Shown: positions 4,491-23,416 of the stretch, one piece after another
Layout of the letters: each line of letters starts with the position of its first letter
Numbering within the stretch: the stretch's first letter is position 1
Source of the DNA: a virus
Lineage: Duplodnaviria; Caudoviricetes
Direction: 5' to 3' (one strand)
Length of the DNA: 25,949 bases
IMG/VR virus record: IMGVR_UViG_3300016474_000947
Span: 1-25,949 of that record
The notes under the pieces: model-generated
What the model was told of the DNA's origin: nothing
Database searches by the model: none
What the model saw: the letters and a program-made list of their open reading frames with translations, nothing else
Translations under genes and position numbers: made by a program

Positions 4491-7400
4491 TAAACTTACC
4501 GGGAATAACAATAGTCTTATAAAAACTGGTGGTGTTGAGCTACAACCTAAAAAAACCAACGCGCCTGTCAAGACGACATCAACGGGAGCTACGGCCACAG
4601 TTCTTGAAAATTCTAAAAATAAAACTATAATAACCACAAAGTCTACAGCAAAAAGTGATCAACAATCTTATCTAATCAAAAAGATAAAAACCGCTCAAAA
4701 GGTAGAAAATAAAAATTCAGATGACGTAGGATCTATTGGGATAGCAAATGATAGACCCGTCATCATCATGTCAACAAATTTTCAATCAATATTTGATCAA
4801 TTTTCAAATTACACTAACGCTGGAAATTATTATAGCAAACAATTTGGTGTTAGAGATCTTAGACAAAAACTGATTGAAGCAGTTTTTGATGACGTTAGCA
4901 ATTTGGGTCTAGACGATTATTTTGAAGTTTTGAGATCTGAATTTAAAAAAGGGTTTGATAGAACTAATGAAAATGTAATTTCGCTATTTGAAATTATTGA
5001 TAAATTCATTTCTACTAAAGAAATTTTGGATATTAAAAATTCTATTTATGATAAAGCTGGCGATCCAATTAAATTTCTAGAAGGTCGTTATAGTAAAAAT
5101 ATTACGGAAATTAATAATTCATTTACCTCTACAAAACTCTGGACAATGCTGTTTTATGAGTTCAAAACGATCGTAGAGGGAATGTCATTCCTGAAATATG
5201 AAGCAGGAACCTTGGACGATGATCCATTCAGTAATAATTTTTCTGTTGACAATAATCTTAAACTTGAAAAAAAATCTTCCATAGAAGCAATTAAAATAAA
5301 TGATTCAATTACTACGTTGGTTAATAATAACACCATAGAAGATACTAATGCTAAATTTACCGAAGCATTTAACAGCATAAATGAAATAATCCCAAATAAT
5401 AGTTCTCTCGATGAAAGAAAAGTTCCAATTTACGTGTGTTTCTTGAGAAAACATCAGAAGTTTGTAAATGCTATCAATAATCAATCTTTTATAGAATTTC
5501 TATCAAAAAATTATGATATTACGATAAACAACAGTAGTAACATTTCAAATGTTTTTGAAAAAATAGTTGGAAATATCCCAAAGGACATATTTGATAAACC
5601 AAAAAATTCTGCAAATTCTCTAATTTCAATTCTAAATCAAGGGCCTGATAACGCAAAAATTTTGCCTTTCGAAGTAGATTACATAACTGCAAAAGATGAT
5701 GTATACACACCAGGCGGCGTATACTACTTTGATAACATACTTTCATCAAATACCATTGATATAACTAATATCAATTCATTCGCTCAAAACATCAAGCAAG
5801 TCTATGTCCTTCTCAAGAGGGTTATAGATGAAATTAGATTGATAACTAATAATCAAGACGAAGATTCTGCGTGGTCGCTCTATAATCTTTTGATAAATTC
5901 ATTTTTCACATACACGCCAGGCGATACATTCCTTCCATTGCAAGATGAATATCTCAATGATCCATTCATGACTTTGTTGGAAAGTTCACGTGAAGATATG
6001 AAAGCTAAAGCATATTTGGCACAATATGTGCTTTATATTATGAAAAATAAACAAAACATGGCAAAGTCAACCCTAGATTCAATGTTGACTTTTATGTATC
6101 AAAAATTTAATTCACTCATATCTTCTAATATATCATCGCCTGAAATGGATACGAAAGTTGAAGAAATTAAGTTCGCACAAAAAATTATATCATTTGCATC
6201 CAATCCAGCGGCTGCCGCGGGCTTTAATGAAACTAGCCCGCTTGGCAAAGAATTTCTAATTCAAATTGATGACAATGGACAGGTTCTAATAAGCACCTTT
6301 TATCAAGGGGGATTTGAAGAATTCAAGCTGACTGATTACATAAAATTTTTGCAGGAATATGTAAACAAATTGTCTAAGGAAATTGAAGAGTATTCTACAA
6401 AATGGTGGGAGAATAACTCCAATCCAGAAGATAGTCATTACTGGTTGGATGGTTCATATTTTTATAATGCGATAAATGAATTGATGTCAGGTGAATCACA
6501 AAATTCTCCGCTTGGTACAAAATTCATTCAAGTAATTTCTGATCTTATGTCACAATTTACTGATAATAAATTTTCAGGAGGAATATCTGATTCTAAAGTA
6601 TTTGCAATAATATTTGATCTTGTATTTGATGTAATAACTAAATCTTTTGTGATAGTTGGACAAGAATTGTATTATGAAAATCCTTTCATAAAAAAATATT
6701 CTGTTTCGGAAGTTGACATTAAAAAGGACGTTCTTAAATTTTTTGATGACGTGAAAATTAAGGTTAAATTTAATGATAATTTTTCAAAAAATCTCAATCA
6801 TCAATTTTCAACACAAATTAAGATTGGAACTGAAGAAAACACGAGGATTGAAGCGACAAAGATAACATTGAATGTTATGCAAGAACTTAACACAAGGCTC
6901 ATGGATATTGCAAATTACATGAACTCTAATAAGGTTCAACAATTGATATCAGATCTAAAATTTTTGAACGACATATCCAGTGACACAGGTATTAATAAGA
7001 CAGCAACGGACGCTGGTTCTGGAAAATATATGGTTGTTAAGTCTAAAAATCAGGCTTTTTCTATGGGATCATCCCAAACAAATATTTTTAATTCGCCTGC
7101 GGCAGGCACAAATTTTGCAACAAATCAACTATCACAAGGTTTGCCCGTTGGCGCTGGCACTTTGCAATTTGGAAAATCTTACGAGTATAATAAAAATGCT
7201 GTTGGTGCCTCCGTTGACAGCATGTTGGTTTATGAAAATAATTTGGAAAAATTGAATTCGATAAAAGAAATTTTTAACAAAATTCAAATTAGTAATATTG
7301 CATCGACTTTTCTTGACATCAAGTCTGTTCTAGACAATAATCCTAATATAAAAGCAGGTAGTGAAATTGAACCTCTTGATGATTCATCGCCAAGAAGTAA

Positions 7401-8385
7401 ATTTAAGAAAGTTTTTGAATCTACGTTTAAAAATGGTGAACACATTAACACGCAAGATTCAGATGTTTCAAGAAAAAAAATATTGTCAATAGGAATTCCA
7501 AAAGGTTTTTCTAGTAATCTAAAGTACAATATCAATTTCAATGGAAATTCAATTAAATATAAAACTAAAGATCTAAAACAAAATGACATAATAGAAATCA
7601 AGGTCTATAAAATAGATGTTCTAACACCTGAGATAATTTATAAACCTGTGTCTTTTCTGTTTGAATTGTCGAGATTTGTTGTGAAAGATGAATCTAAGTT
7701 TCCAACCGATTATAATGATTTTGCTACCATGATAGCAAAATTTCCAACAAGAAACTTTAACAATATCACAAAAAGTGAATTGGAAAAAATTTATTATCTT
7801 GCTGATTTTGATGCGTCATACTCGTTCCTTAAAGGTTCTCAATTGAAAGAATTGTATAAGAATCATGTTCTTAGTTACATGTATGAAATGTATATAAAAT
7901 TGTTGACTGGGGTGTCTCTAAGCGAAAAAGACTTCGCGATTTTTGATCCAATCAGGTACGTCTCTGTTGAAACGATCAATAAATTTTTCAATTCTTATAA
8001 AACCGTGGAGAATAAAACAGAGAATCTTGAAAATGTTGATGCAACGTTGGATGAGTGGTCAAGAAAATTGACTCCTTTGTCTAATGGTGTTGCTATGATG
8101 AAAAATATTTTTAATCCTAGAAAGTTTGAAAGAATATTCAATGTGTTGGTTGATCCATACTCATTTGAAATAGATTACAAAAAAACTACCTCTACCTCAC
8201 AAGGAACTGACGCTCTCAAATATCAACAATCAATTGGTGATATAATCACAAAATCTGTGTTGGCAGATGGTACAGACCCGGATAAAAAAGTGACGGTCTA
8301 TGTTCAAAGGCCTAGAAACAAAAATGAGGTTGTTATGGAACGATACTTTGTTCAAATTAACACGACAAACATTGAGGTATATTGA
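4483..8385 (+). CDS. Very large hypothetical (probably virion) protein, 1300 aa
   Basis: Long uninterrupted ORF, coupled to both neighbours (8-nt overlap upstream, TGATG downstream). No recognisable catalytic motif. Confidence 0.6.
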   Translation: MFNKLTGNNNSLIKTGGVELQPKKTNAPVKTTSTGATATVLENSKNKTIITTKSTAKSDQQSYLIKKIKTAQKVENKNSDDVGSIGIANDRPVIIMSTNFQSIFDQFSNYTNAGNYYSKQFGVRDLRQKLIEAVFDDVSNLGLDDYFEVLRSEFKKGFDRTNENVISLFEIIDKFISTKEILDIKNSIYDKAGDPIKFLEGRYSKNITEINNSFTSTKLWTMLFYEFKTIVEGMSFLKYEAGTLDDDPFSNNFSVDNNLKLEKKSSIEAIKINDSITTLVNNNTIEDTNAKFTEAFNSINEIIPNNSSLDERKVPIYVCFLRKHQKFVNAINNQSFIEFLSKNYDITINNSSNISNVFEKIVGNIPKDIFDKPKNSANSLISILNQGPDNAKILPFEVDYITAKDDVYTPGGVYYFDNILSSNTIDITNINSFAQNIKQVYVLLKRVIDEIRLITNNQDEDSAWSLYNLLINSFFTYTPGDTFLPLQDEYLNDPFMTLLESSREDMKAKAYLAQYVLYIMKNKQNMAKSTLDSMLTFMYQKFNSLISSNISSPEMDTKVEEIKFAQKIISFASNPAAAAGFNETSPLGKEFLIQIDDNGQVLISTFYQGGFEEFKLTDYIKFLQEYVNKLSKEIEEYSTKWWENNSNPEDSHYWLDGSYFYNAINELMSGESQNSPLGTKFIQVISDLMSQFTDNKFSGGISDSKVFAIIFDLVFDVITKSFVIVGQELYYENPFIKKYSVSEVDIKKDVLKFFDDVKIKVKFNDNFSKNLNHQFSTQIKIGTEENTRIEATKITLNVMQELNTRLMDIANYMNSNKVQQLISDLKFLNDISSDTGINKTATDAGSGKYMVVKSKNQAFSMGSSQTNIFNSPAAGTNFATNQLSQGLPVGAGTLQFGKSYEYNKNAVGASVDSMLVYENNLEKLNSIKEIFNKIQISNIASTFLDIKSVLDNNPNIKAGSEIEPLDDSSPRSKFKKVFESTFKNGEHINTQDSDVSRKKILSIGIPKGFSSNLKYNINFNGNSIKYKTKDLKQNDIIEIKVYKIDVLTPEIIYKPVSFLFELSRFVVKDESKFPTDYNDFATMIAKFPTRNFNNITKSELEKIYYLADFDASYSFLKGSQLKELYKNHVLSYMYEMYIKLLTGVSLSEKDFAIFDPIRYVSVETINKFFNSYKTVENKTENLENVDATLDEWSRKLTPLSNGVAMMKNIFNPRKFERIFNVLVDPYSFEIDYKKTTSTSQGTDALKYQQSIGDIITKSVLADGTDPDKKVTVYVQRPRNKNEVVMERYFVQINTTNIEVY

Positions 8386-10133
8386 TGTCAATTTCACTAA
8401 CTTCCAGAGAAACATACTTCATTGATGTGCCTGAGGTAGAAAATTTTAATGTAAAATTTAGGTATAATTTTTATGTTTCTAATGAACAAATAAGCGATGA
8501 GATAACAGTACCTGATTTCTTGGCAACAAAACAATCAAAGGGTTTCTTTGATCCAGAATACTTTAAACTTTTTAATTTTCATGTTCCCAGATACATGACT
8601 ATTACATGGAAATCACTAAAATTGGGTAACAACATTAGTGATGAAAAGGAAAGTAATAAGCTTGTGACTCCCGATCAAGCAGGCGTATCTAAAAATCTTA
8701 TATCAAAAAATATCGACAAAGTGTTGACAGAAGATGAATTTTCATCTGCAAATTTTTTTGGTATCACATTTCAAGACAGCCAACTCTTTAATAAATTGCA
8801 GAATATGCTCAAATATTCATCTGAAATTGTTTCTGACGTTCCAATGTCAGATAATGATTTTGAGACGATAGCAATGGATTCTTCAACGTTTGGAGCGACT
8901 TATTACAAGACTGGAAAGCAACCTATTACTGGTGTTACTAAAAAATTGTTGGAGTCCGTGAATATTAATACTCAAATTAATTCAAGACACTTGTATGAAA
9001 TTTGTCAAAAAATTTCTGAAGATCCACAATCGCCATATACTGATGATGTGAAACCTTTGATGGATGCAAGTAAAAAATATAAGGATACGCCTGATACTAA
9101 TTTTAATAATTCTGATTATGCACCGGCGATTGATTATATTAGCGTAAGTCCTGCATCATCAAATGGTCAATCTAGGGGAGTTCCACAAGTTGTAGGATAC
9201 ATTATTGACAAATACGAGATTGACGCAAAAAGAAATATCGTTCCTCTAGATCCAATCATAATAGAGAATTCAAGTGTTAATTTTTATGTTGACACAAGGA
9301 TCAAATATAATCACACCTACGTATATTCAATAAGAAGTGTATTGGCAATTAGCGTGCCTGCTATAAATTCAACGAACGGTAAAATGTCAACAATAACTTT
9401 TTTGGTTAGTTCAAAACCATCAGGTAAATTGTGGATATCTACTCTTGAAAATAAGGCACCTCCTCCCCCAGTTGATATAAATTTTGCATGGGATTATGGA
9501 AGACAAAAGTTGATTGTAAATTGGTGCTTTCCAGTAAATCCTCAATATGATATAAAAAGATTTCAAATCTTTAGAAGAAAAAAGATTGAACATCCCTTTC
9601 AACTGATCAAAGAATACAATTTTGATGATTCAGCAGTGAAAATGAATGTTGGTGAATTTCCTGATGAAAAATTGGTAGAACATCTTGAGAATCCTATAAC
9701 GTATTATATAGATGATGATTTTACAAAAGATTCAAAGTACATTTACACCGTTACTTCAATTGATGCGCATGGATTGACATCTAATTACGGAGCACAATTT
9801 GAAATATCATTTGATAGATTTAAGAACATATTGATAAAAAAATTGATTTCTCAAGCAGGCGCTCCCAAACCATATCCAAACATGTATTTGAAAGGAACCG
9901 GATTTGCAAATTTGATGAAAGTTAGTGGTGAATATTCAAAGAAGATGAAAATATATTGTGCGCCACATAACAAAAAATATCTTTATGTAAAGAATAACAA
10001 TAAAGAAGTTTCTCCAATATTTGAAACCGATGCATCTGGAGGTAATTATAAGATTCAAGTTTTGAATCTAGACAATCAAAAAGGAGAGACAATTACAATT
10101 AACATTAAGTCTTCTTCTAATCAAAAAATATTA
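8385..10133 (+). CDS. Fibronectin type III domain-containing virion protein (582 aa if TTA is stop; standard code extends to 10193)
   Basis: ATG in TGATG overlap with SD-like GAGGT at 8374. FN3 pattern APPPP..INFAWD...KRFQIFRR...YIDDD....YIYTVTSIDAHGLTS. First in-frame TTA is at 10131-10133. Confidence 0.7.
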
Positions 10134-10899: not shown

Positions 10900-10953
10900 T
10901 TTTCCTTTGTATAGTTGATTGTTATTTTAAAGATATTCACGGGATCAAGATCA

Positions 10954-12222
10954 ATGGCAATTTTTAAAGACATAGAAGATAATGACATTAAAACAGCAAG
11001 AAGTTTTCTCAATCAACTAATTGATGTTTTGCAGGAAGATATTAGTGGCTCTACATCACGTAGAAAATATCAGGTGTTCGTCACTGGTGGGGTTGGACCT
11101 GGCGTGACAAGCTCCTTGTATCAAACTGTGTACGATCAAGATTTTACCTTGCAAACAGCAAATCCAATTTTTGATATGACTGTTGGAATAAGTGAATATG
11201 GTTCTACTGCGGCTAGCGCGCTTGTTGGATTCGATTCAGTAGGAAAGGAAATATTCCCAAGTTCATCGCTAATGATGAGGGAGAAGTTGGACATATATCG
11301 ACAATTTGCGCAAGCGTTGTTGGGTGGTACGACTTCTGATCATCAATTTAAGGCACCATCATCATCCACTACGGTCTCAGACACGATAGACGTTGCGTTG
11401 TTCATTGCCTTCAAACGTCTTTTTGCACGTGATCAAATAAAGCGTGAAACTTTTGCAATGAAGTTTTATGAGACTGGTTCGGCTGTTAGATCCACAGGAA
11501 ATACTGACGGTCTATTGAGTGACCCACCTCGTGTTGGTCTTTCTGGAATAGATGTTATAGGAAGACCAAATCTATTTGTAACGTCTCTTACGGGATCTAA
11601 AATATACACCGACATTGGTGCAGCATCAGACAAATTGACAGCCATGGGTGGTCAATATGGACATATTGTTGATAGCTCAAACACCAATAGAACAGTGGGT
11701 CTCATGTATTATGATAGAGGTATAGCAGTTCTTGATTTGAAGAAGATCACAAGCGGTTCACAATTCATGTCAGGTGCAATTGATGCAATGCATCCTCTAG
11801 GCACAATTATGTTGGGCGGGACAGGAACTGAAACTGAGAAAAAATCAAAGTTTATCCCAGACTTTGTGGTATCTGCATCAATTGATAATATCGTTGATCA
11901 CATCGCATCATGTAGGTTTAGCTCTGGTTCGCTTTCAGCGATGACGTTCCAAAACGTAACAAACATAAATAGCACTCTCATATTCTGTAGGGCATCCGCA
12001 AACGAATTCAATTATTCATCTAATCCAACTTACACTGACACAGATAATAGGATAGTAGTAATCGATCCAGGACAGGAGGATACACAACAATCATTTACGT
12101 TTGTAACCTCAGTTGGATTGTATAATGCTAATGATGATTTGCTTGCAGTTGCGAAGCTATCGCGTCCTGTTGAGAAATCTTTTGAAAGAGATTTGACCTT
12201 CAGGGTTAGATTGGATTTCTGA
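10954..12222 (+). CDS. Putative baseplate/tail structural protein (tail-collar-like C-terminal motif)
   Basis: ATG 10954 chosen; the extension from 10915 contains in-frame TTA (10927). C-terminus FVTSVGLYNANDDLLAVAKLSRPVEK...FRVRLDF-TGA is shared with the 13338 gene. Confidence 0.65.
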   Translation: MAIFKDIEDNDIKTARSFLNQLIDVLQEDISGSTSRRKYQVFVTGGVGPGVTSSLYQTVYDQDFTLQTANPIFDMTVGISEYGSTAASALVGFDSVGKEIFPSSSLMMREKLDIYRQFAQALLGGTTSDHQFKAPSSSTTVSDTIDVALFIAFKRLFARDQIKRETFAMKFYETGSAVRSTGNTDGLLSDPPRVGLSGIDVIGRPNLFVTSLTGSKIYTDIGAASDKLTAMGGQYGHIVDSSNTNRTVGLMYYDRGIAVLDLKKITSGSQFMSGAIDAMHPLGTIMLGGTGTETEKKSKFIPDFVVSASIDNIVDHIASCRFSSGSLSAMTFQNVTNINSTLIFCRASANEFNYSSNPTYTDTDNRIVVIDPGQEDTQQSFTFVTSVGLYNANDDLLAVAKLSRPVEKSFERDLTFRVRLDF

Positions 12223-13337: not shown

Positions 13338-15818
13338 ATGTCAATAATCAAGGTTGGACCTGATGATCAAGAGAATTTTACCATCACAATGAACCCGAAG
13401 AGGACCTATGTGTCAAGTTCTTCGGGTGTGACTGGTTCAGTGTATGTTTTTGCTCGACGAAGCAAGATTGAGAAAAACATGGCTCCGTCTTCTGCGTTCA
13501 TTGAAGCAACGCATGATGACGCCGATATTAATGCTGAACTGGCTAGCGTAAAAACCAAATTGTTGTCGAATGGTGGTGTTGGATCAATTGAAGGCGCACT
13601 TGAAAAATATCTAGAAAAAGTAAATCAACAAAATATCTCTGCTAGAAAACTCAAGACCCTGGAGATCATTAGATTTACGCCATCATACACTTTCACAACA
13701 AACACCATGAGAAAGTTGTATGTCAAAGATGTGCTGATGCGTCATTACAGGGTTTCATACCCCACGGCACATTGGGCATACACAAATTATAATAGCATAA
13801 ATTTTTTTACATCATCTACCGTGCCAACGGGTTCAGCACTACTATATCCTAACATTGAAGGTCCTGCTTCACAATTTCATGAAGGTTATGTTTCTGGCAC
13901 ATATTCTCTTAGCGGTGCGTTTTCATTCGATTTCTACATAAATCCCAGATATAAGCAAGATTCTTACGATAAAGAATTTAAAGCAGGAACAATATTTCAT
14001 CTATCATCCAGTTATGCGGTGTCCTTGATAAGCGGATCCGCTAAGGATGAAAATGGAAAAACTATCGGTTATAGATTGCAGTTGCAATTGAGTCATAGTG
14101 CGGGTATTTTGCCTTCTTTGGCAAAACCTGGAAGTTATCCAAATGACCTTGTGTTTCTGTCAAACGACAATTGTTTGACTGGAAATAATTGGCATCATGT
14201 TGTTATTAGGTGGGGAACTAATCTTATCAATGGTGGTACGGGCAGTTTTAACATAGACGGAGAGGATAAAGGTTATTTTGTTGTTCCTTCAGGGACTATA
14301 ACACCCCGTTTGTCAAACGAAGCAGCTCCCGACGTATTGTGTGTTGGCAATTTTTATACTGGTAGAAATACAGGTGTTAACGCACAAGCGTATTTCTTTG
14401 CTAGGGATCCTGCTAAAAGAGATGGTCTTGTTGAATTGATAGATGATGGTTCTACAACAAATGAACCTGCCAATTATTCATTTGATCATCCTTTGAATGC
14501 AGAATTGCACGATTTGGCAATTAAACGTTATTACATGTCAGATCAAGACATTGTGATTTCTTCTTCTACAGGTCCTGCAACGCTTGATGATAATATTGCA
14601 TTCTATTTGCCTCCATTTTTTACTCAAACGTCATCGCTAAGACAAGATGTAAATGGTTATGGAGGTGTTCTTCAAACCCCATTTATAGCCGCTGACGGTA
14701 CAACCACCACACCATACAATGTTTCTATGGCATTTGGTGTTGCTGGTCACTTCATAAACATTGAGAATTATCTAAAAGATTTTGCTTCAAATTCTCACCC
14801 TCGTCTTCATCTAATGACCGGATCGGTGCTTGACACTGGCACGACTCAAGCTTTGTCCGCAAACGAGCATATCTATAACAATCCTTTTAACATAAGGAGA
14901 AATTTGTTGATTATGCCTTGTGATGACGGGCAGTTTAAACCCAACTACTCTTTGCTTGAAGCAGAAGTCAACAGACAAAGCGCTACTGGCGATGATGGGG
15001 TTGAAGATTATTCATTTGTAAATCTTAATAACTTGTTGTCAACTGGATCGTTGTTGTTTGGCACCACTTTTACTGACGTAGAGGGAACTAGCGCCGCATC
15101 TGCTGATCAATTTGTAAAAGACACAATTGGATTTTCACCTGAAGATCCAAGCATTCCTGCTGGGGATGCATATAAAAAATTCATGAATAGCGTCAAGAGA
15201 CAAATAGCAGCAGGAAATTACGCACCTGGAATTTCAACCGATGCACCATTGACAATCTATCAAAGAACCCTTGACCCTTCTTCCGATCAGGTAACTTTCT
15301 TTGACATAAGCAATTTGTATTACGGGAAAAGAATATTGCCAGGTAGCCTAATCATGGTTGATTCTAACGTTAGTGGGTCTGGAGGTACAATGCGTTGGAC
15401 ATTGCGTGATAATGGTTATGGCAACATTTATCGTGCAGACAGTCTTACCAATCACGCAACTTGGAATAGTGTAGGCAATATTTTTTACGATGAAGGGATC
15501 ATCGTGATAAAAAATCCTCACCTATATTTCTTTGGTAAAAATCAATTTGAAATAAGTTTTCGTGGCGAACAAAACATTCATACCCTAAAAATGGAAGTGG
15601 TGGCACCACGAGGTCTAATAAACTCATCATCTAATTCAGGATTTAAGAAATTGCCAGCATCTGGACATATCACTGACACAGACCCCGATTACGTCAACAT
15701 ATCTGGCATCAATTTTCATGATAAAAATTTGAATGTTGTTGCTAAGACACAATTGGCACAACCTATCATGAAACGACATGGTGATAGGATTATGTTTAAG
15801 GTTACTTTGGATTTCTTA
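13338..15818 (+). CDS. Large baseplate/tail protein with LamG/ConA-like domain and tail-collar-like C-terminus (826 aa if TTA is stop; standard code extends to 15944)
   Basis: LamG-like pattern FSFDFYINP...NNWHHVVIRW...FNIDG...LCVGN...LHDLAI. C-terminus KVTLDF matches the paralog's RVRLDF-stop and is followed directly by TTA, whose A begins the next ATG. Confidence 0.7.
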
Positions 15819-16207
15819 TGCCCCGTCGCCGAAAAAAAAGAGGCCATTATCACAGGGGCACTTATGTGTCCCACATTGCGGGTGAGTGTAAGTATCGAAG
15901 TGGGTGGGAAGAAAAGTATATGCGTCACCTTGATTCGAACGTAGACGTGAAAATATGGTCATATGAGAATTTGGTCATACCATACGTCTCTAATGTAAGA
16001 ACCGGCAGGTTGAGGAAATATTATCCTGACTTTTACGTTGAAATGCAAGATGGTCAAAAAATTCTCATTGAGATAAAACCGAGTAAAAAACTAACACAGG
16101 CAATTATAAAAAAGAAAGTTGCCGCAGCACAACAATGGTGTAGTGAACACGGTGTGACTTATAAGATATTGACAGAAATTGAATTGAAAGTTATGGGGAT
16201 TATTTTA
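15818..16207 (+). CDS. Head completion nuclease (T4 gp4-like / TnsA N-terminal PD-(D/E)xK endonuclease)
   Basis: YRSGWE, YYPDF, IEIKP and K..AA..WC....YKILTE.EL motifs. First in-frame TTA at 16205-16207 (standard code ends at 16225). Confidence 0.85.
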
Positions 16208-16238: not shown

Positions 16239-16799
16239 ATGTCTAAGCTAATATTGGGTCTTGACGTTTCCACATCTTGTACTGGCGTTTGTGTGATTGA
16301 TTCGGAAATTCCACCTGATGATGCTGGAACGCATATCATAAAGCTAGACTACATAGATTTTAAAAAATGCGGCACATTCTTTGAAAAGGCAGATAGGGTG
16401 AAGAATGAGTTGATAAGACACTTTTCTACTATAGGTACCAAACCAATAATATTTGCGTTGGAAGAACCATTGCTTGGTTTTTCTAAGGGAATGTCATCAG
16501 CAGGAACTATCACAACTTTGATGCGTTTTAATGGAATAGTGTCATACATAGGCAGGGAAATATTTGGTATCGATCCAATCTATCAGTCTGCCGCTCACGC
16601 TCGTAAGTTGTGTGGTGTTAAATTGCAAAAAACTGCCATTGCTGGCATGAGTCACAAAGAACAAGTTTTCAAACACATGTCTGAAAACGATCTAAAACAC
16701 ATAACTTGGTCCACGAAGAAAAATGGTCAACCAATTGATGCTTCTCGTGATATGACTGATGCATACGTCATAGCTCGAGCGACATCTTTGAGTTATTTA
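16239..16799 (+). CDS. RuvC-like Holliday junction resolvase
   Basis: ILGLDVSTSCTG, central LEEP, and DMTDAYVIA acidic RNase H-fold motifs. First in-frame TTA at 16797-16799 (standard code ends at 16844). Confidence 0.85.
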
Positions 16800-16836
16800 T
16801 TGTACAAGTTAACTCAAGTATTTAATAATGTTAAAA

Positions 16837-17814
16837 GTGTATAGCCTTACCCAAAAGCTAAGGTTCATTGAATCGGTGTTTGGTAGTGGACGTCTGGCAA
16901 CAAACGGAAAGAATTTTGATGTTAGGTGCCCAATATGTGCACCATCTGATAACAGCAAAAGAAAATTGGCCATTCGTGTTACCGATGACGTGAATCATTG
17001 TTGGACATGCGGTTGGAAATCTCATACTCTTGCGCCTTTGATTAGAAGGTTTGGTACAACGTCGCAGCTCTCAAAATACAGAGAGGAGTTTATGCCTCAA
17101 GGAACAAGAGATGAAAATCTTGAATCTATTGAGGAAAAAAAGTCGCTACATCTACCACAAGATTTTTGCCTTCTCACAAATGCATCCCAATCAGATCCAG
17201 ATGCAAAGGCTGCATGGGCATATCTGAAATCAAGAGGAATAACTCGTAAAGATGCCTGGTATTATAAATTGGGTATATCTAATGAATATCGATGGCGTCG
17301 AAGAATCATTATTCCTTCGTTTGATAGTGAAGGTAATTTGAATTTCTTTGTGGCGAGAAATATTGATTCTGGAGACAAAAGAGCTCGTTATGATGGTCCT
17401 GATGAAGACAAACTACCAATCATTTTCAATGAAATAAACATTGATTGGAAAAGAAAATTGGTGATATGTGAAGGTGCATTTGACGTTATGAAATGTGGTG
17501 AAAATTCTGTACCTTTGTTGGGCTCAGATTTGAATGAACAGTCGAGACTTTTTAATCAGATTCTACTTCACAATACGTCAATTGCCCTTGCTCTTGATGG
17601 TGATATGTGGTATACCAAGACCCCAAGAATAGTAAAAAAAATGCAAGAATATGATGTGAATGTTTCAATTGTTGATGTAAGACAATGGGATGATCCTGGA
17701 AAAATGACAAAGCAACAATTTAAAATTGCGCTTGAAGATGCAATTACTCCTACTTGGGAAGACAATTTTTATAATAAGCTACAACGTGCTTCAGAACTAA
17801 AGATGAGAATGTAA
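16837..17814 (+). CDS. DNA primase (zinc-binding domain + TOPRIM)
   Basis: CPIC...HCWTC zinc finger; ICEGAFD, LDGD and DDPG TOPRIM motifs. Start placed at GTG 16837 because ATG 16828 is followed by TTA; the start is uncertain. Confidence 0.88.
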   Translation: MYSLTQKLRFIESVFGSGRLATNGKNFDVRCPICAPSDNSKRKLAIRVTDDVNHCWTCGWKSHTLAPLIRRFGTTSQLSKYREEFMPQGTRDENLESIEEKKSLHLPQDFCLLTNASQSDPDAKAAWAYLKSRGITRKDAWYYKLGISNEYRWRRRIIIPSFDSEGNLNFFVARNIDSGDKRARYDGPDEDKLPIIFNEINIDWKRKLVICEGAFDVMKCGENSVPLLGSDLNEQSRLFNQILLHNTSIALALDGDMWYTKTPRIVKKMQEYDVNVSIVDVRQWDDPGKMTKQQFKIALEDAITPTWEDNFYNKLQRASELKMRM

Positions 17815-17845: not shown

Positions 17846-18496
17846 ATGGTAAAAATTGCTCACATTGCTGATGTTCACTGGCGAGGTCTATCTCGCCATG
17901 ATGAATACAGACAAGTATTTGAATATTTTGTGAAAGATATTAAGAAAAATCAAATAGAACATATTTTCGTGGGTGGTGATATTTTTCACACAAAAACAAC
18001 CGGTCTAAGTCCCGAATACATACAACAACTAACTTGGTGGCTAACCTCAATGTCGGAGGTTGCTGAAGTTCATTTGACTCTCGGCAACCACGATGGTAAT
18101 TTGGTTAATGTGACTCGTCAGGATGCAGTCACACCTGTTGTCGAAGCGCTAGCCAATGATAGAATCCATCTTTATAAAAAGAGTGGAAACTATGAATTCA
18201 CCCCAGGGTATGTTTGGTGCGTTTTTAGTCTATTTGATACAGAAAATTGGGATAAGGTGAAACCCACACCAGGAAAAATTAATATTGCATGTTATCATGG
18301 TCCAGTATGGGGTGCTCGTACCGAAACTGATTGGGTAATTGAAGATGGGATAGGGATTGAATATTTCAATAATTTTGATTTTGCATTTTTGGGCGACATA
18401 CACAAACTTCAATACCTTGGTTATCGGGATGTTGAAATTCTTATTGACGAAGAAGAGTTGGGGAAATATCCTGGTGCTACGATTATTGAGGAGTTA
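17846..18496 (+). CDS. Mre11/SbcD-like metallophosphoesterase, N-terminal fragment (T4 gp47-like)
   Basis: HIADVH, GGDIFH, GNHD, CYHG and LGDIH motifs; lacks the final YPGS motif. In-frame TTA at 18494, TGA at 18503-18505. Confidence 0.85.
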
Positions 18497-18501
18497 CAAA
18501 G

Positions 18502-21078
18502 TTGAAAAAGATTAAAATTAAAACACAAATGCCTTGGATAGCATATCCTGGATCAACTGTTCAACAAAATTATGCAGAAGATCTAAAACATGGTTATCTT
18601 ACGTGGGAAATAAATAACCCTAATGACTTTAGGGTATCATTCAATAATTTGCCAAATCCAAAACCCTTTGTTACTCTAGCATGGGCTGGTGATATTAATG
18701 ACGCACTATCGTTTGCTTCTTCACAACCAACGGGTTCTAGATTTAGAATCAAAAGCAATATCCATATTGGACAACATGACATACATAAGTTGTCGTCTTC
18801 CATAAAAAAAATTGGAGCATCAGAGATAACTTTTAAAATTGATCATCAAATTGATAAAAGTATCGTTTCATCAGGTACCCAAAAAATAGAAAGAAATGAT
18901 CTACGAAATATTGATGTTTTGTTGGGTTTGATAAAGAGTTATCACACTAAATTTAATTTTTCTGATGTAGTGTGGCAAAATGTTACTTCACAGGTAAAAA
19001 ATTACCTGTCTAACGTTATAGGTTCTGAGGACATTATAAGAAACACAAAGTGGACTCTTCGAAGTTTGAATTTTGACAATGTGTTTGCATATGGTGAAGG
19101 TAACGTAATCAATTTTGATAATTTGAATGGTGTGGTTGGAATATTTGGTCCTAATCGAGCAGGAAAATCTTCAATAGTTGGTACCATCATGTACTCCTTG
19201 TTTAATTCATCAGACAGGGGTTCAGTAAAAAATTTGTATGTTTGCAATATTAGAAAGCCATATTGTTACGCAAAAGCAATCATTAATGTAAATGGCACTG
19301 ATTACGTACTAGAAAGACAAACAACTAAACACGAATCAAAGAAGGGCGCAATTAGCGCTCCCACTTCACTTAATGTTTTTAGAATAAATGAAAGTGGTGA
19401 AGCAATTGATCTTGCTGGCGAGCAAAGAAATGACACCGAAAAAGTAATTCGATCGTTGATAGGAAATTCTGATGATTTTTTGCTGACATCGCTTTCTGCA
19501 CAAGGAGAAATAAATCAATTTATTTCACATGGGTCAGCTAAACGTAAGCAAATTCTATCAAGATTTCTCGACCTTGATATTTTTGATAAAATGTATGAGT
19601 TGGCGAATAAAGATGTGAATGCCGTCAAGGCACAACTCAAATCATTTCCAGATAGGGACTGGGATGGTTTGAAACACGAACTAGAAGAAAAAGTTAAAAG
19701 ATTTGATGATGAAATCATTGAAATTAATTCCGCATCTTCAGAATTGGCATACAAACTTGAAGAAGCAAAAATTTCTTTGTCAAGACACACTAATACGTCT
19801 CCTGTGACTGAATCTAACGTCAAAGAACAGTACCAAAAGGTTTTGTTGCTAACAAAGCAACTTGATGAAATTCAAAAGAAAACAAGTTCTATTGTTGAAA
19901 ATATAGAAAAAAATGAATCGAAGATCAAGACGATTGAATCCTTGAAGACTGAAAACGATGTTTCAAACTTGAAAAAAAGATTGCAATCATTGACCGAACT
20001 AGAAAACAGTGTTACAACTTTCACTTACAAATATGAGAAAGAACTTTCAACTCTAAAACAACAGGAAAAATCACTAAAAATTCTAGATGATGTTCCTTGT
20101 GATGATAAATTTCCCAATTGCAAATTTATTAAGGATGCGCATCTAGTGAAAGATAAAATTGCATCACAAAGAACAACAGTAGATTCTATGTTGGAATCTC
20201 TCAATAAGATGTCAACATCTCTTGACACCTTGAAGAGTGAAGGTTTGCGTGATAAATTGGAAAAGATACAAAAATTGCAAGATATGCAAGTAAGGTTGAG
20301 CACTGAAGTTTCCAATGAAAAACTCGAATTGGTGAAACTTGAACATAATAAATCAAAATTGTCTACTGATCTTGATGGTGCAAAAAGTAGACTGAAGAAT
20401 CTTGAAGATGCAATAAAAAATAATGAAAATTCTGAAGTTGTTTCCCTAAGGGAAAAAATAGAAGAATATTCTGTGTCAATTAGAGAACACGATAATAAGA
20501 AAATGAAGGTGGCTAGTGAACGTGGGAAAGCAATGTCAGATGCACAAAAATTGATAGATGAGCAAGAGAAAAGAAATTCTCTTTTTTCTGGAGTTAAATC
20601 AATAGAGTTGATTGCAAATGCCTTTTCTAAAAAAGGAATACCTAATGACATCGTTTCTTCACAATTGCCTATTATCAATGCAGAAATAACAAAAATTCTT
20701 GCAGGCATTGTTGATTTTACAGTTGAACTAGAGGTAGATCAGGAGTCCGATTGGATGGACATTTATATAAATTATGGTGATTCAAAAAGAATTATTGAGC
20801 TAGCAAGTGGAATGGAAAAGATGATCAGCTCTATTGCAATTAGGGTTGCTTTGATCAATATTTCCACGTTGCCTAAAACTGATATGTTTATTATTGATGA
20901 AGGATTTGGTGCGCTGGATGATGCTGGTGTAGAGGCGTGCAATCGTCTATTGACATCTCTAAAGAGATATTTTAAAACAATCTTTGTAATTACACACGTT
21001 GATGGTATCAAAGATTCTGCGGATCACGTAATTGAAATTTCTAAGAATGAAAAAGACGCGAGGGTTTCATATGTTTGA
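18502..21078 (+). CDS. Rad50/SbcC-like ATPase (T4 gp46-like) fused to the C-terminal part of Mre11/SbcD
   Basis: SD GAGGAG at 18488-93 before TTG. N-terminal IAYPGS.VQQNYAE (Mre11 C-part), Walker A GPNRAGKS, coiled coil with two central Cys, signature ASGMEK, Walker B/D-loop FIIDEGFGALD, H-loop ITH. Confidence 0.92.
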   Translation: MKKIKIKTQMPWIAYPGSTVQQNYAEDLKHGYLTWEINNPNDFRVSFNNLPNPKPFVTLAWAGDINDALSFASSQPTGSRFRIKSNIHIGQHDIHKLSSSIKKIGASEITFKIDHQIDKSIVSSGTQKIERNDLRNIDVLLGLIKSYHTKFNFSDVVWQNVTSQVKNYLSNVIGSEDIIRNTKWTLRSLNFDNVFAYGEGNVINFDNLNGVVGIFGPNRAGKSSIVGTIMYSLFNSSDRGSVKNLYVCNIRKPYCYAKAIINVNGTDYVLERQTTKHESKKGAISAPTSLNVFRINESGEAIDLAGEQRNDTEKVIRSLIGNSDDFLLTSLSAQGEINQFISHGSAKRKQILSRFLDLDIFDKMYELANKDVNAVKAQLKSFPDRDWDGLKHELEEKVKRFDDEIIEINSASSELAYKLEEAKISLSRHTNTSPVTESNVKEQYQKVLLLTKQLDEIQKKTSSIVENIEKNESKIKTIESLKTENDVSNLKKRLQSLTELENSVTTFTYKYEKELSTLKQQEKSLKILDDVPCDDKFPNCKFIKDAHLVKDKIASQRTTVDSMLESLNKMSTSLDTLKSEGLRDKLEKIQKLQDMQVRLSTEVSNEKLELVKLEHNKSKLSTDLDGAKSRLKNLEDAIKNNENSEVVSLREKIEEYSVSIREHDNKKMKVASERGKAMSDAQKLIDEQEKRNSLFSGVKSIELIANAFSKKGIPNDIVSSQLPIINAEITKILAGIVDFTVELEVDQESDWMDIYINYGDSKRIIELASGMEKMISSIAIRVALINISTLPKTDMFIIDEGFGALDDAGVEACNRLLTSLKRYFKTIFVITHVDGIKDSADHVIEISKNEKDARVSYV

Positions 21079-21413: not shown

Positions 21414-21797
21414 ATGGCTCAAGGTAAAATAGACTATAACGCTCTAGGACAAACTATTGATACAACATGGGGAAGGGCCTCAACACCAAAAACTGCTAGT
21501 TATTCTGTTAAATTTTCAATGCAAGGTGATAAATTGATCGCCTCATATGCAGCTATTGTTAATTTTGGTACCGAAAGAGAAATGATTATGATGAAAAGAT
21601 CATATGCCGAGGAATCGATCTCAATCATCTCTGAGGCAATTAAGGGAATTAAGGCAAATTACAAACAAATTTCTGGTGATAGTCTTTCTACAAAAGAAGT
21701 TGCCACGTCAGATTCTTTGGAAATAATTGGTTACGGAGTACACAATCCTAAAAGAACGGCGTATTATAGAAGAAAGACAGTTTTTGAGCTCAGCTTA
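21414..21797 (+). CDS. Hypothetical protein upstream of terminase (127 aa if TTA is stop; standard code extends to 21812)
   Basis: Strong SD AGGAG. Ends YYRRKTVFELS followed by TTA, whose A starts the terminase ATG (TTATG). Confidence 0.7.
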
Positions 21798-23416
21798 TGT
21801 CAGGACCTATAAATAGAGAAGATCAAGTTAAGGAAATATTGAATTGTGGTAAGGATGCTGTGTATTTCATGCGTAATTACGCAAAAATTCAGCATCCTAA
21901 GAGGGGTCTTATACCCTTTGAAACTTACAAATTTCAGGATGAGTGCGTAAGCGAATTTGAAAAAAATAGATTTAACATAGTTCTTAAATCTAGACAATTG
22001 GGTTTGAGCACAGTTACTGCCGCATATGCAGTTTGGTATGCAATCTTCAAGAAAGATAAAAACATCTTGATCATTGCAACTAAACTTCAAACGGCAATGA
22101 ATTTCATCAAGAAAGTAAAAACCATTCTAGATGGTTTGCCAAAATGGCTGCTACTCACAAAATTTGAACCAACAAAACAACAAGTTAGTTTTTCAAATGG
22201 TTCAACTATAACGGCAGTACCAACCAGTCCAGACGCAGGTAGATCAGAGGCATTGTCACTACTCATAGTTGATGAGGCAGCATTTATTCGTGATTTTGAA
22301 GAAATCTGGACTGGTCTCTACCCCACCATTTCAACAGGTGGCAGCGCGATCATCATTTCAACTCCAAATGGTGTTGGTGGAACTTACTATACACTTTGGA
22401 CTGATGCTGTTGCTCAAGTAAATGAATTCAATCCTATAAATCTTCCATGGCACGTTCACCCAGAACACAATCAAGAGTGGTTCAATAAAGAAACTAGGAA
22501 CCTTCCCAAGAGAAAAGTTGCTCAAGAATTTTTGTGCGATTTCATATCTTCTGGCGATACATTCCTTCAACCTTCAGAGATGGACTATTTGAGAGATATG
22601 ATTGATCAACCTATACGAAAAGAAGGACCAACTTCTGGCGTGTGGATATGGTCTGATCCTGAACCAAATAAGAAATATGTCATTTCGGCTGACGTTGCTC
22701 GCGGTGACGGTAATGATTATTCAACATTCCATGTTATAGACAATAATGATTGTGAAGTTGTGGCGGAGTATATGGGAAAGCTACCTCCCGACAAACTAGC
22801 TGATCTTCTTGCCGAATATGGAAAAATTTATAATAACGCCCTGATATGTCCGGAAAGAAACACATTTGGATATTTTACGTGTGTCAAATTGAGGGACATG
22901 GGATATAAACGTCTGTATTACAGAAATACATCAGGTGATTTGTTTGAGTACATATCAAACGATCCAGATGCGGTGCCTGGATTTGAAACACAAGGAAACA
23001 CAAGACCACAAATACTTGCAAAACTTGAAGAAGTAATTAGAAATAGAATTATAAAAATTTATTCTCAAAGGTTTTATGATCAAATGCAGGCCTTTATTTG
23101 GAATGGATCAAAGGCGCAAGCAACAAAAGATGCACACGATGATTTGATTCTAAGTTTGGCAATCGGTATTTGGTTGAATAACGGTGGTTCTTCAACGGGT
23201 GAACAAGGCAAAGAATTTGCCATGGCAATGTTGAAAGCAACTAAACTAGACAGAAGAGATTCAAATCAAATGCCAGGTGATATTGCTTCAGCACAACCTT
23301 TGGTCAATCCTAACATTAGAGGACACTCTTACAATCCACAAAATGTTCACAAACCTAGGGATCCATCACAAGTGAAACATGTAGATGTTTCAGACTTTAG
23401 TTGGCTTCTTCATTGA
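21797..23416 (+). CDS. terL: Terminase large subunit (T4 gp17-like)
   Basis: Walker A-like KSRQLGLST, Walker B LIVDEAAFI, STPNG coupling motif, nuclease motifs ADVARGDGNDYS and HDDL. Confidence 0.95.
   Translation: MSGPINREDQVKEILNCGKDAVYFMRNYAKIQHPKRGLIPFETYKFQDECVSEFEKNRFNIVLKSRQLGLSTVTAAYAVWYAIFKKDKNILIIATKLQTAMNFIKKVKTILDGLPKWLLLTKFEPTKQQVSFSNGSTITAVPTSPDAGRSEALSLLIVDEAAFIRDFEEIWTGLYPTISTGGSAIIISTPNGVGGTYYTLWTDAVAQVNEFNPINLPWHVHPEHNQEWFNKETRNLPKRKVAQEFLCDFISSGDTFLQPSEMDYLRDMIDQPIRKEGPTSGVWIWSDPEPNKKYVISADVARGDGNDYSTFHVIDNNDCEVVAEYMGKLPPDKLADLLAEYGKIYNNALICPERNTFGYFTCVKLRDMGYKRLYYRNTSGDLFEYISNDPDAVPGFETQGNTRPQILAKLEEVIRNRIIKIYSQRFYDQMQAFIWNGSKAQATKDAHDDLILSLAIGIWLNNGGSSTGEQGKEFAMAMLKATKLDRRDSNQMPGDIASAQPLVNPNIRGHSYNPQNVHKPRDPSQVKHVDVSDFSWLLH

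Follow-up and report, generated by a model that had tools for sequence, protein, structure and literature searches.

The question raised by this locus is whether the triplet TTA at 21795..21797, which table 11 reads as leucine, ends the gene in front of the terminase large subunit gene (terL). The window, meaning the whole stretch of DNA that was analyzed, is an entire IMG/VR record (G000) of 25,949 bases with 35% GC that is about 8% complete. Its 19 genes, all on the plus strand, belong to a large T4-like phage; among them PhoH, head closure, a RuvC-like resolvase, primase, a split SbcD/SbcC, terL (from 21797), and a T4-type portal (from 23836) were identified. terL (21797..23416, plus strand) is an intact, TTA-free frame of 539 aa with a TGA stop. 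It matched PHROG 2 (E 4e-53) and Pfam Terminase_6N, and its identity to the best cultured or GenBank phage matches was only 39–43%. The metagenomes carrying the window came from freshwater, reservoir, aquaculture, estuary, and lagoon samples; no RNA dataset was among those listed as carrying it.

Bases 21790–21799 of the junction are TCAGCTTATG. The TTA is codon 128 of the ORF starting at ATG 21414. The terL ATG at 21797 begins on the A of this TTA, which gives a TTATG one-base stop/start overlap (21795..21799, plus strand). The original prediction, that the upstream gene contains no TTA before this codon and shares its last base with terL, was confirmed in the sequence. With TTA as its inferred stop, the upstream gene (21414..21797, plus strand) encodes 127 aa; it is conserved, with 660 homologues. 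The ends of the best 120 of these were examined, and the terminal motif could be parsed in 118. Exactly before the TTA column, 11 residues after the motif start, 105 of the 118 ended; 3 ended one residue earlier, 3 one residue later, and 7 were longer. Orthologues running on with LCQDL-like residues would have argued against a stop here; instead, 111 of the 118 ended no more than one residue from the TTA and had no counterpart of the apparent table-11 tail (CQDL and TAA; 21798..21812, plus strand), which is most likely untranslated. In 6 of the 7 longer homologues the tail opened with L at the stop column. One longer homologue had the same tail as phage record L018, whose codon at this column is TTA. 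The read-through tail of the window was also present in two database proteins with 79–92% identity. Reading the terL start in another frame yields the CQD letters, so the fact that they recur does not point to a functional tail.

The codon itself was compared in 60 junctions, parsed in 59 of 83 fetched loci with the window added. It was TGA in 52, TAA in 5, and TTA in 2 (the window and L018), and one junction had its stop a codon earlier; among the 59 relatives, 57 thus had TGA or TAA. A count of the five-letter forms against TGATG and TAATG had been proposed, and it gave TGATG 10, TAATG 5, and TTATG 2; most of the other junctions had ATGA-type overlaps at the same codon. The terL start was overlapped by 1 or 4 bases in 43 of 47 distinct orthologous junctions, with the 1-nt and 4-nt classes partly confounded. 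The distant phage G006 also had TTA at the stop column of the upstream gene. A degenerate junction pattern with TTA was found in IMG/VR in the contig of L018 alone, and a metagenome scan yielded 2 loci. Since both the stop and the start are fixed by orthologues, this junction is a clean proof site, and the comparison strongly supports the predicted termination at UUA.

An AlphaFold model of the 127-aa protein, built with 98 sequences, had a pLDDT of 83. Its last strand spanned residues 114–126 and its final block had a pLDDT of 94, so the predicted fold is complete at residue 127. No PDB match was obtained for the protein at E ≤ 0.001, and the ESM Atlas gave no usable match. Weak BFVD/PDB matches pointed to tail-terminator and tail-completion folds, none of them firm.

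The use of TTA was investigated across the window. In the table-11 frames (19 frames, 8603 codons), in-frame TTA occurred 10 times, compared with 282 TTG, 158 CTT, and 129 CTA. The remaining two frames contained 291 and 142 TTA, so the depletion is frame-specific. With true starts, and counted after each gene had been trimmed at its first TTA, TTA made up 0 of 621 internal Leu codons. In 25 relatives of 35–40% GC it made up 1627 of 5215 Leu codons, with a range of 18–45%; taking the lowest share among these relatives, the probability of 0/621 was 8e-55. As sense codons UUG and UCA were retained, with 274 TTG as Leu after trimming and 270 TCA under table 11.

TTA stands at the end of 6 of the 19 genes, at 10131, 15816, 16205, 16797, 18494, and 21795. 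In the table-11 frames, these six first TTAs are all confined to the final 45 codons, a region of 855 out of 8524 codons (P ~1e-6). TTATG is formed by two of the six (15816 and 21795), as had been predicted. The TTAs at 747, 10927, and 16831 lie 5' of likely gene starts, and that at 16809 lies behind the RuvC TTA.

The six genes were compared with the stops of their relatives. Agreement was exact for three, within one residue for RuvC, ambiguous for SbcD, and uninformative for one. The 826-aa gene (13338..15818, plus strand) ends in ...DF-TTA and forms the first TTATG with the start codon of head closure (ATG 15818). The TTA column is where 8 of 11 displayed relatives end. The orthologous junction in G006 is also TTATG, and a paralogue within the window (table-11 ORF 10915–12222) ends in ...LDF-TGA. 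The head-closure/TnsA-like endonuclease (15818..16207, plus strand; 129 aa, PHROG 218) has its TTA stop at 16205, and all 11 displayed relatives stop at that column. The RuvC-like resolvase (16239..16799, plus strand; 186 aa) has its TTA stop at 16797, and 8 of 11 displayed relatives stop no more than one residue away. For the 582-aa gene (8385..10133, plus strand), which ends with the TTA at 10131, the ends of relatives vary, and this gene is uninformative alone.

The ambiguous case is the N-terminal half of the split SbcD (17846..18505, plus strand), in which the TTA at 18494 lies three codons before the TGA at 18503. Relatives end 0–2 residues from the TTA. The TGA preserves the ancestral overlap with the following TTG start, an overlap that takes the form ATGA in L018 and L013. 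By sequence comparison this TTA is compatible with either a stop acquired later or a Leu codon. The SbcD/Mre11 split itself (17846–18505 and 18502–21078) has an acidic end and a basic start, and the second half is fused to SbcC. The split was also observed in L018, L010, L013, L047, L023, and L025; SbcD is continuous in L038–L044, L048, G006, and G008.

Five further phage records had the TTA-stop pattern: G002, G003, L018, G006, and G007. TTA fell within the last 45 codons in 24 of 35 cases in G002 (104 kb, 45% GC; p 4e-16), 43 of 75 in G006 (187 kb, 43% GC; p 4e-21), and 3 of 4 in G007. G003 and L018 had TTA at orthologous gene ends, and both are too short for statistics. Reciprocal swaps were also found. 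The TGA of the window PhoH is TTA in G002 and G006, the TGA of the window gene ending in ...RLDF is TTA in G007, and the TGATG at 8383 is TTATG in G002. In the six recoded records together, 298 ORFs ended with TTA in 86 cases, TGA in 149, TAA in 52, and TAG in 11, counts that are partly circular because the ORFs were called with TTA as a stop. One-base overlaps with a start were formed by 7 of 86 TTA, 5 of 149 TGA, 2 of 52 TAA, and 0 of 11 TAG ends. The backup stop after TTA was no nearer than after other stops (median 8.5 codons, p 0.5).

Other phages did not show this pattern. TTA was used freely in G005 (361 of 499 internal), and no clustering in the last 45 codons was found in G001 (4/19), G008 (3/19), or G009 (9/39). 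G001, G008, G009, and L081, with rare TTA, 54–59% GC, and no terminal enrichment, were not counted as recoded. G001 had 19 TTA among 5938 Leu codons. Ten of the 19 were internal, including conserved hydrophobic positions, so TTA seems to be read as Leu in this phage, which looks like a rare-TTA step preceding capture of the codon.

These phages bear on the reading that TTA is only avoided and still encodes Leu, with the survivors lying in unconstrained tails and TTATG being coincidental. G001 and G009 do combine strong avoidance with internal Leu-like use, G009 encodes tRNA-Leu(taa), and the SbcD TTA is readable as Leu. The window, however, uses ATA, CTA, GTA, and TCA freely at 35% GC. Avoidance alone was judged insufficient in the original prediction, and this held: in several genes and in several phages, TTA coincides exactly with the column at which invariant C-termini stop. 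Reading TTA as Leu would also fuse the portal and other proteins in G002 and G003; in G002, the gene before the portal would fuse with it into a protein of 1186 aa. Mere avoidance is extremely improbable.

A programmed frameshift or bypass at UUA that fuses the upstream protein with the terminase, or a switch allowing conditional read-through, is suggested by the position of the TTA, which touches the terL frame, and by published UUA-linked bypassing that also concerns a terminase gene (PMC10732093). terL is nevertheless whole and TTA-free, and hard stops at the same codon in relatives indicate that the two proteins are separate. No neighboring frame is available for entry at the TTAs of head closure, RuvC, and PhoH (in G002 and G006). 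No longer form was present among 232 candidates of 224–2000 aa, which is weak evidence. Such a device is very unlikely, and TTATG is an ordinary stop-start overlap in a changed code, with nothing special about it.

The accuracy of the sequence was considered because the window is a metagenomic fragment whose sole full-length match is possibly its source run, so that an error might have turned TAA or TGA into TTA. Run X1, which may be that source, has junction bases identical to the window. In the independent run X3, two 117-nt contigs cross 21746–21862, both at a depth below 5. The first differs at 2 positions and has T at 21796, as the window does; the other, with 5 differences (a strain about 96% identical), has T21796G, which gives TGATG and is seen in this single contig only. 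The same TTA is thus present in L018, G006, and an X3 contig, and the same tail is present in the two database proteins mentioned above. Errors also cannot clear TTA from 8433 sense codons, and their probability as an explanation is close to nil.

Close strains from two studies, each seen as a single contig at a depth below 5, had one base inserted immediately after the RuvC TTA, together with a deletion at 16833. These changes rewrite the entire RuvC table-11 tail and break the 16828 ATG-TTA frame, as expected if both are non-coding. The table-11 primase start at ATG-TTA (16828–16839) is probably false, and the likely start is GTG 16837.

TTA is missing inside the genes and present at the stop positions of relatives, and it most likely terminates translation. 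The overlap with terL is retained irrespective of which stop codon forms it. We consider it highly probable that TTA is a fourth stop codon in this phage, that the upstream protein ends after residue 127, and that ribosomes likely reinitiate on the overlapping terL ATG. Peptide release at UUA is suggested by the sequence comparison: UUA would release the upstream chain after residue 127, and the terminating ribosome would restart on the terL AUG, the course usually assumed at TGATG and TAATG overlaps. Such coupling is suggested by the geometry of the conserved overlap. Only a weak Shine-Dalgarno-like GAG precedes the terL ATG, which would fit dependence on coupling.

The tRNA genes of the recoded and TTA-poor phages were also investigated. 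No tRNA was found in the window or G002, and no Leu tRNA was among the 11 tRNA calls of G006, all three being partial records. In G001, scanned in 20-kb pieces, Leu(taa) was missing among 49 tRNA calls. In G001, the regions L098:8801-8949 and L101:8775-8850 contain tRNAs with anticodon CTA (two) and TTA, and G006 has one with anticodon CTA (L277:14237-14308). They are possibly amber and ochre suppressors, in phages still using those stops.

The search for a factor reading UUA gave the following results. In G002, G003, L018, G006, and G007 no RF-1 domain was found, and the window, G002, G006, and G007 gave no credible PCRF match (records 2–52% complete); a PCRF match in G006, weak at E 2e-4 and located in the portal region, was rejected. 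NCBIfam annotation of 124 of the 138 G006 proteins (110–520 aa) revealed no translation factor and no host clue. The RF2 motifs of 150 representatives were 138 SPF, 6 SPY, 2 SPT, 1 SKY, and 1 RF1-type, with 2 unparsed; none of the motifs parsed was an RF2 motif lacking the serine, which is retained in the odd motifs of P0159, P0162, and P0198. Looking for RF2 in 31 genomes around G013 retained no locus, an uninformative outcome. None of 71 loci in a GTDB PhoH scan was named Myxococcota, and no TTA-at-ends pattern was seen among the TTA-poor ones. With TTA counted, TAG ends 0 of the 19 window genes, and the six recoded records likewise end only 11 of 298 ORFs with it. This near-absence hints at RF2-dominated termination.

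Short RF1-like genes with a PPT or PPN motif were observed in G001 (L084:1453-2182) and G009 (L269). The G001 gene is without the N-terminal domain, retains GGQ with an in-frame TTA before it, and is interrupted at CTT-TGA in the manner of the RF2 frameshift site. As readers of UUA these genes were rejected, because neither phage has a terminal TTA and the G001 gene contains an internal one. Both phages also carry tmRNA genes (L095:2403-2774 in G001 and L313:9392-9751 in G009), and the tag of G001 is closed by TGA rather than TTA. We presume a resemblance of both tags to myxobacterial tags, as a lead only. The recoded phage G006 encodes two patatin-like proteins (L271:3701-4567 and 5851-6705) whose matches to CBASS lipases were weak, at E 1e-15 and 4e-18, and fell well below the cut-off.

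The same protein ends could arise by another mechanism if UUA were an unassigned 'hungry' codon for which the host has no tRNA, with stalling followed by rescue factors, drop-off, or near-cognate release. The partial recoded records yielded no release factor, G001 pairs rare TTA with the missing Leu(taa) call, and a hungry UUA is documented in Streptomyces (PMC10732093). TTA, however, ends 86 of 298 ORFs, including core genes, with no nearer backup stop, and its start overlaps are at least as frequent as those of TGA and TAA. Stalling with tmRNA tagging would also destroy the products. Judged from sequence alone, with which efficient rescue would be compatible, the hungry codon is unlikely.

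For the preferred reading, a true stop, the UUA reader would be a class-I release factor of the host, probably RF2 with a relaxed second-position check; this is the weakest step and is proposed by analogy with labyrinthulean mitochondria and peDinoflagellate plastids, assuming a host without tRNA-Leu(UAA). In organelles, UUA termination is accompanied by either a Ser204 substitution in RF2 or an altered mtRF1a, so the best guess is an RF2 variant of the host. The likely route would be codon capture, in which TTA dwindled to a state like that of G001 before being taken up again as a stop; TTA is one base change from TGA and from TAA.

The distribution of the code among phages was examined with quick trees only. 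A three-gene tree of 24 selected loci grouped the window, G003, G002, L018, and G001 with a support of 95, and a single clade for the four recoded members (window, G003, G002, and L018) was not rejected (AU p 0.23). G006 was far off on a long branch. Judged from these sequences, the scattered distribution would fit a host-borne code or several origins. Our wider proposal, which we favor with some reserve, is that a bacterial host lineage turned UUA into a true stop through a release factor of new specificity, so that a sense-to-stop change took place in a free-living cell. On this proposal, TGA, TAA, and TTA flip among close strains, and G001 preserves the step before capture.

UUA as a stop in a phage implies that a bacterial cytoplasm or a phage factor terminates on UUA. 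Codon capture and release-factor specificity thereby become testable in a non-organellar system, and standard, TTA-poor, and TTA-stop members can be compared directly within one phage family. Annotation of the recoded phages with table 11 yields false tails and fusions, which are already in protein databases (P0001, P0002, and P0032). Among the papers covered by the literature search, UUA as a stop was reported for organelles only and for no phage or bacterium.

TGATG and TAATG one-base overlaps and ATGA overlaps are a common form in bacterial and phage operons. The geometry here is the same, and the terminating triplet is TTA; the overlap is ordinary, and the changed code is the point of interest. 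Stop-codon recoding is also known in phages, with TAG read as Gln and TGA as Trp. There, as here, a non-standard code occurs beside related standard-code phages. The present change runs in the opposite direction, from sense to stop, and needs tRNA loss and a changed release specificity, but no suppressor tRNA. The UUA stop code of the labyrinthulean type, which we take to be NCBI table 23, is the closest in kind. According to a 2025 paper, UUA acts as a stop codon in labyrinthulean mitochondria, peDinoflagellate plastids (UUA/UCA), and Marsupiomonadales mitochondria (UUA/UUG), it accompanies an RF2 Ser204 change or an altered mtRF1a, and the plastid case is the first sense-to-stop change outside mitochondria (PMC12574857). 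In those organelles, as in the phages here, UUA is absent inside genes and present at the ends of homologues, many genes end with it, and standard-code annotation produces false fusions and tails. Unlike the organelles, the present case concerns a bacterial cytoplasm in which a large T4-like dsDNA phage is translated, both UUG and UCA remain sense codons, and no altered release factor was located in the partial phage records searched. In Streptomyces phage phiHau3, UUA lies inside a split terL before a 7–10-nt gap and the protein continues (PMC10732093). Both cases involve a rare UUA at a phage terminase gene. Unlike in phiHau3, terL here is one intact 539-aa frame, and UUA ends the preceding gene as part of a genome-wide pattern.
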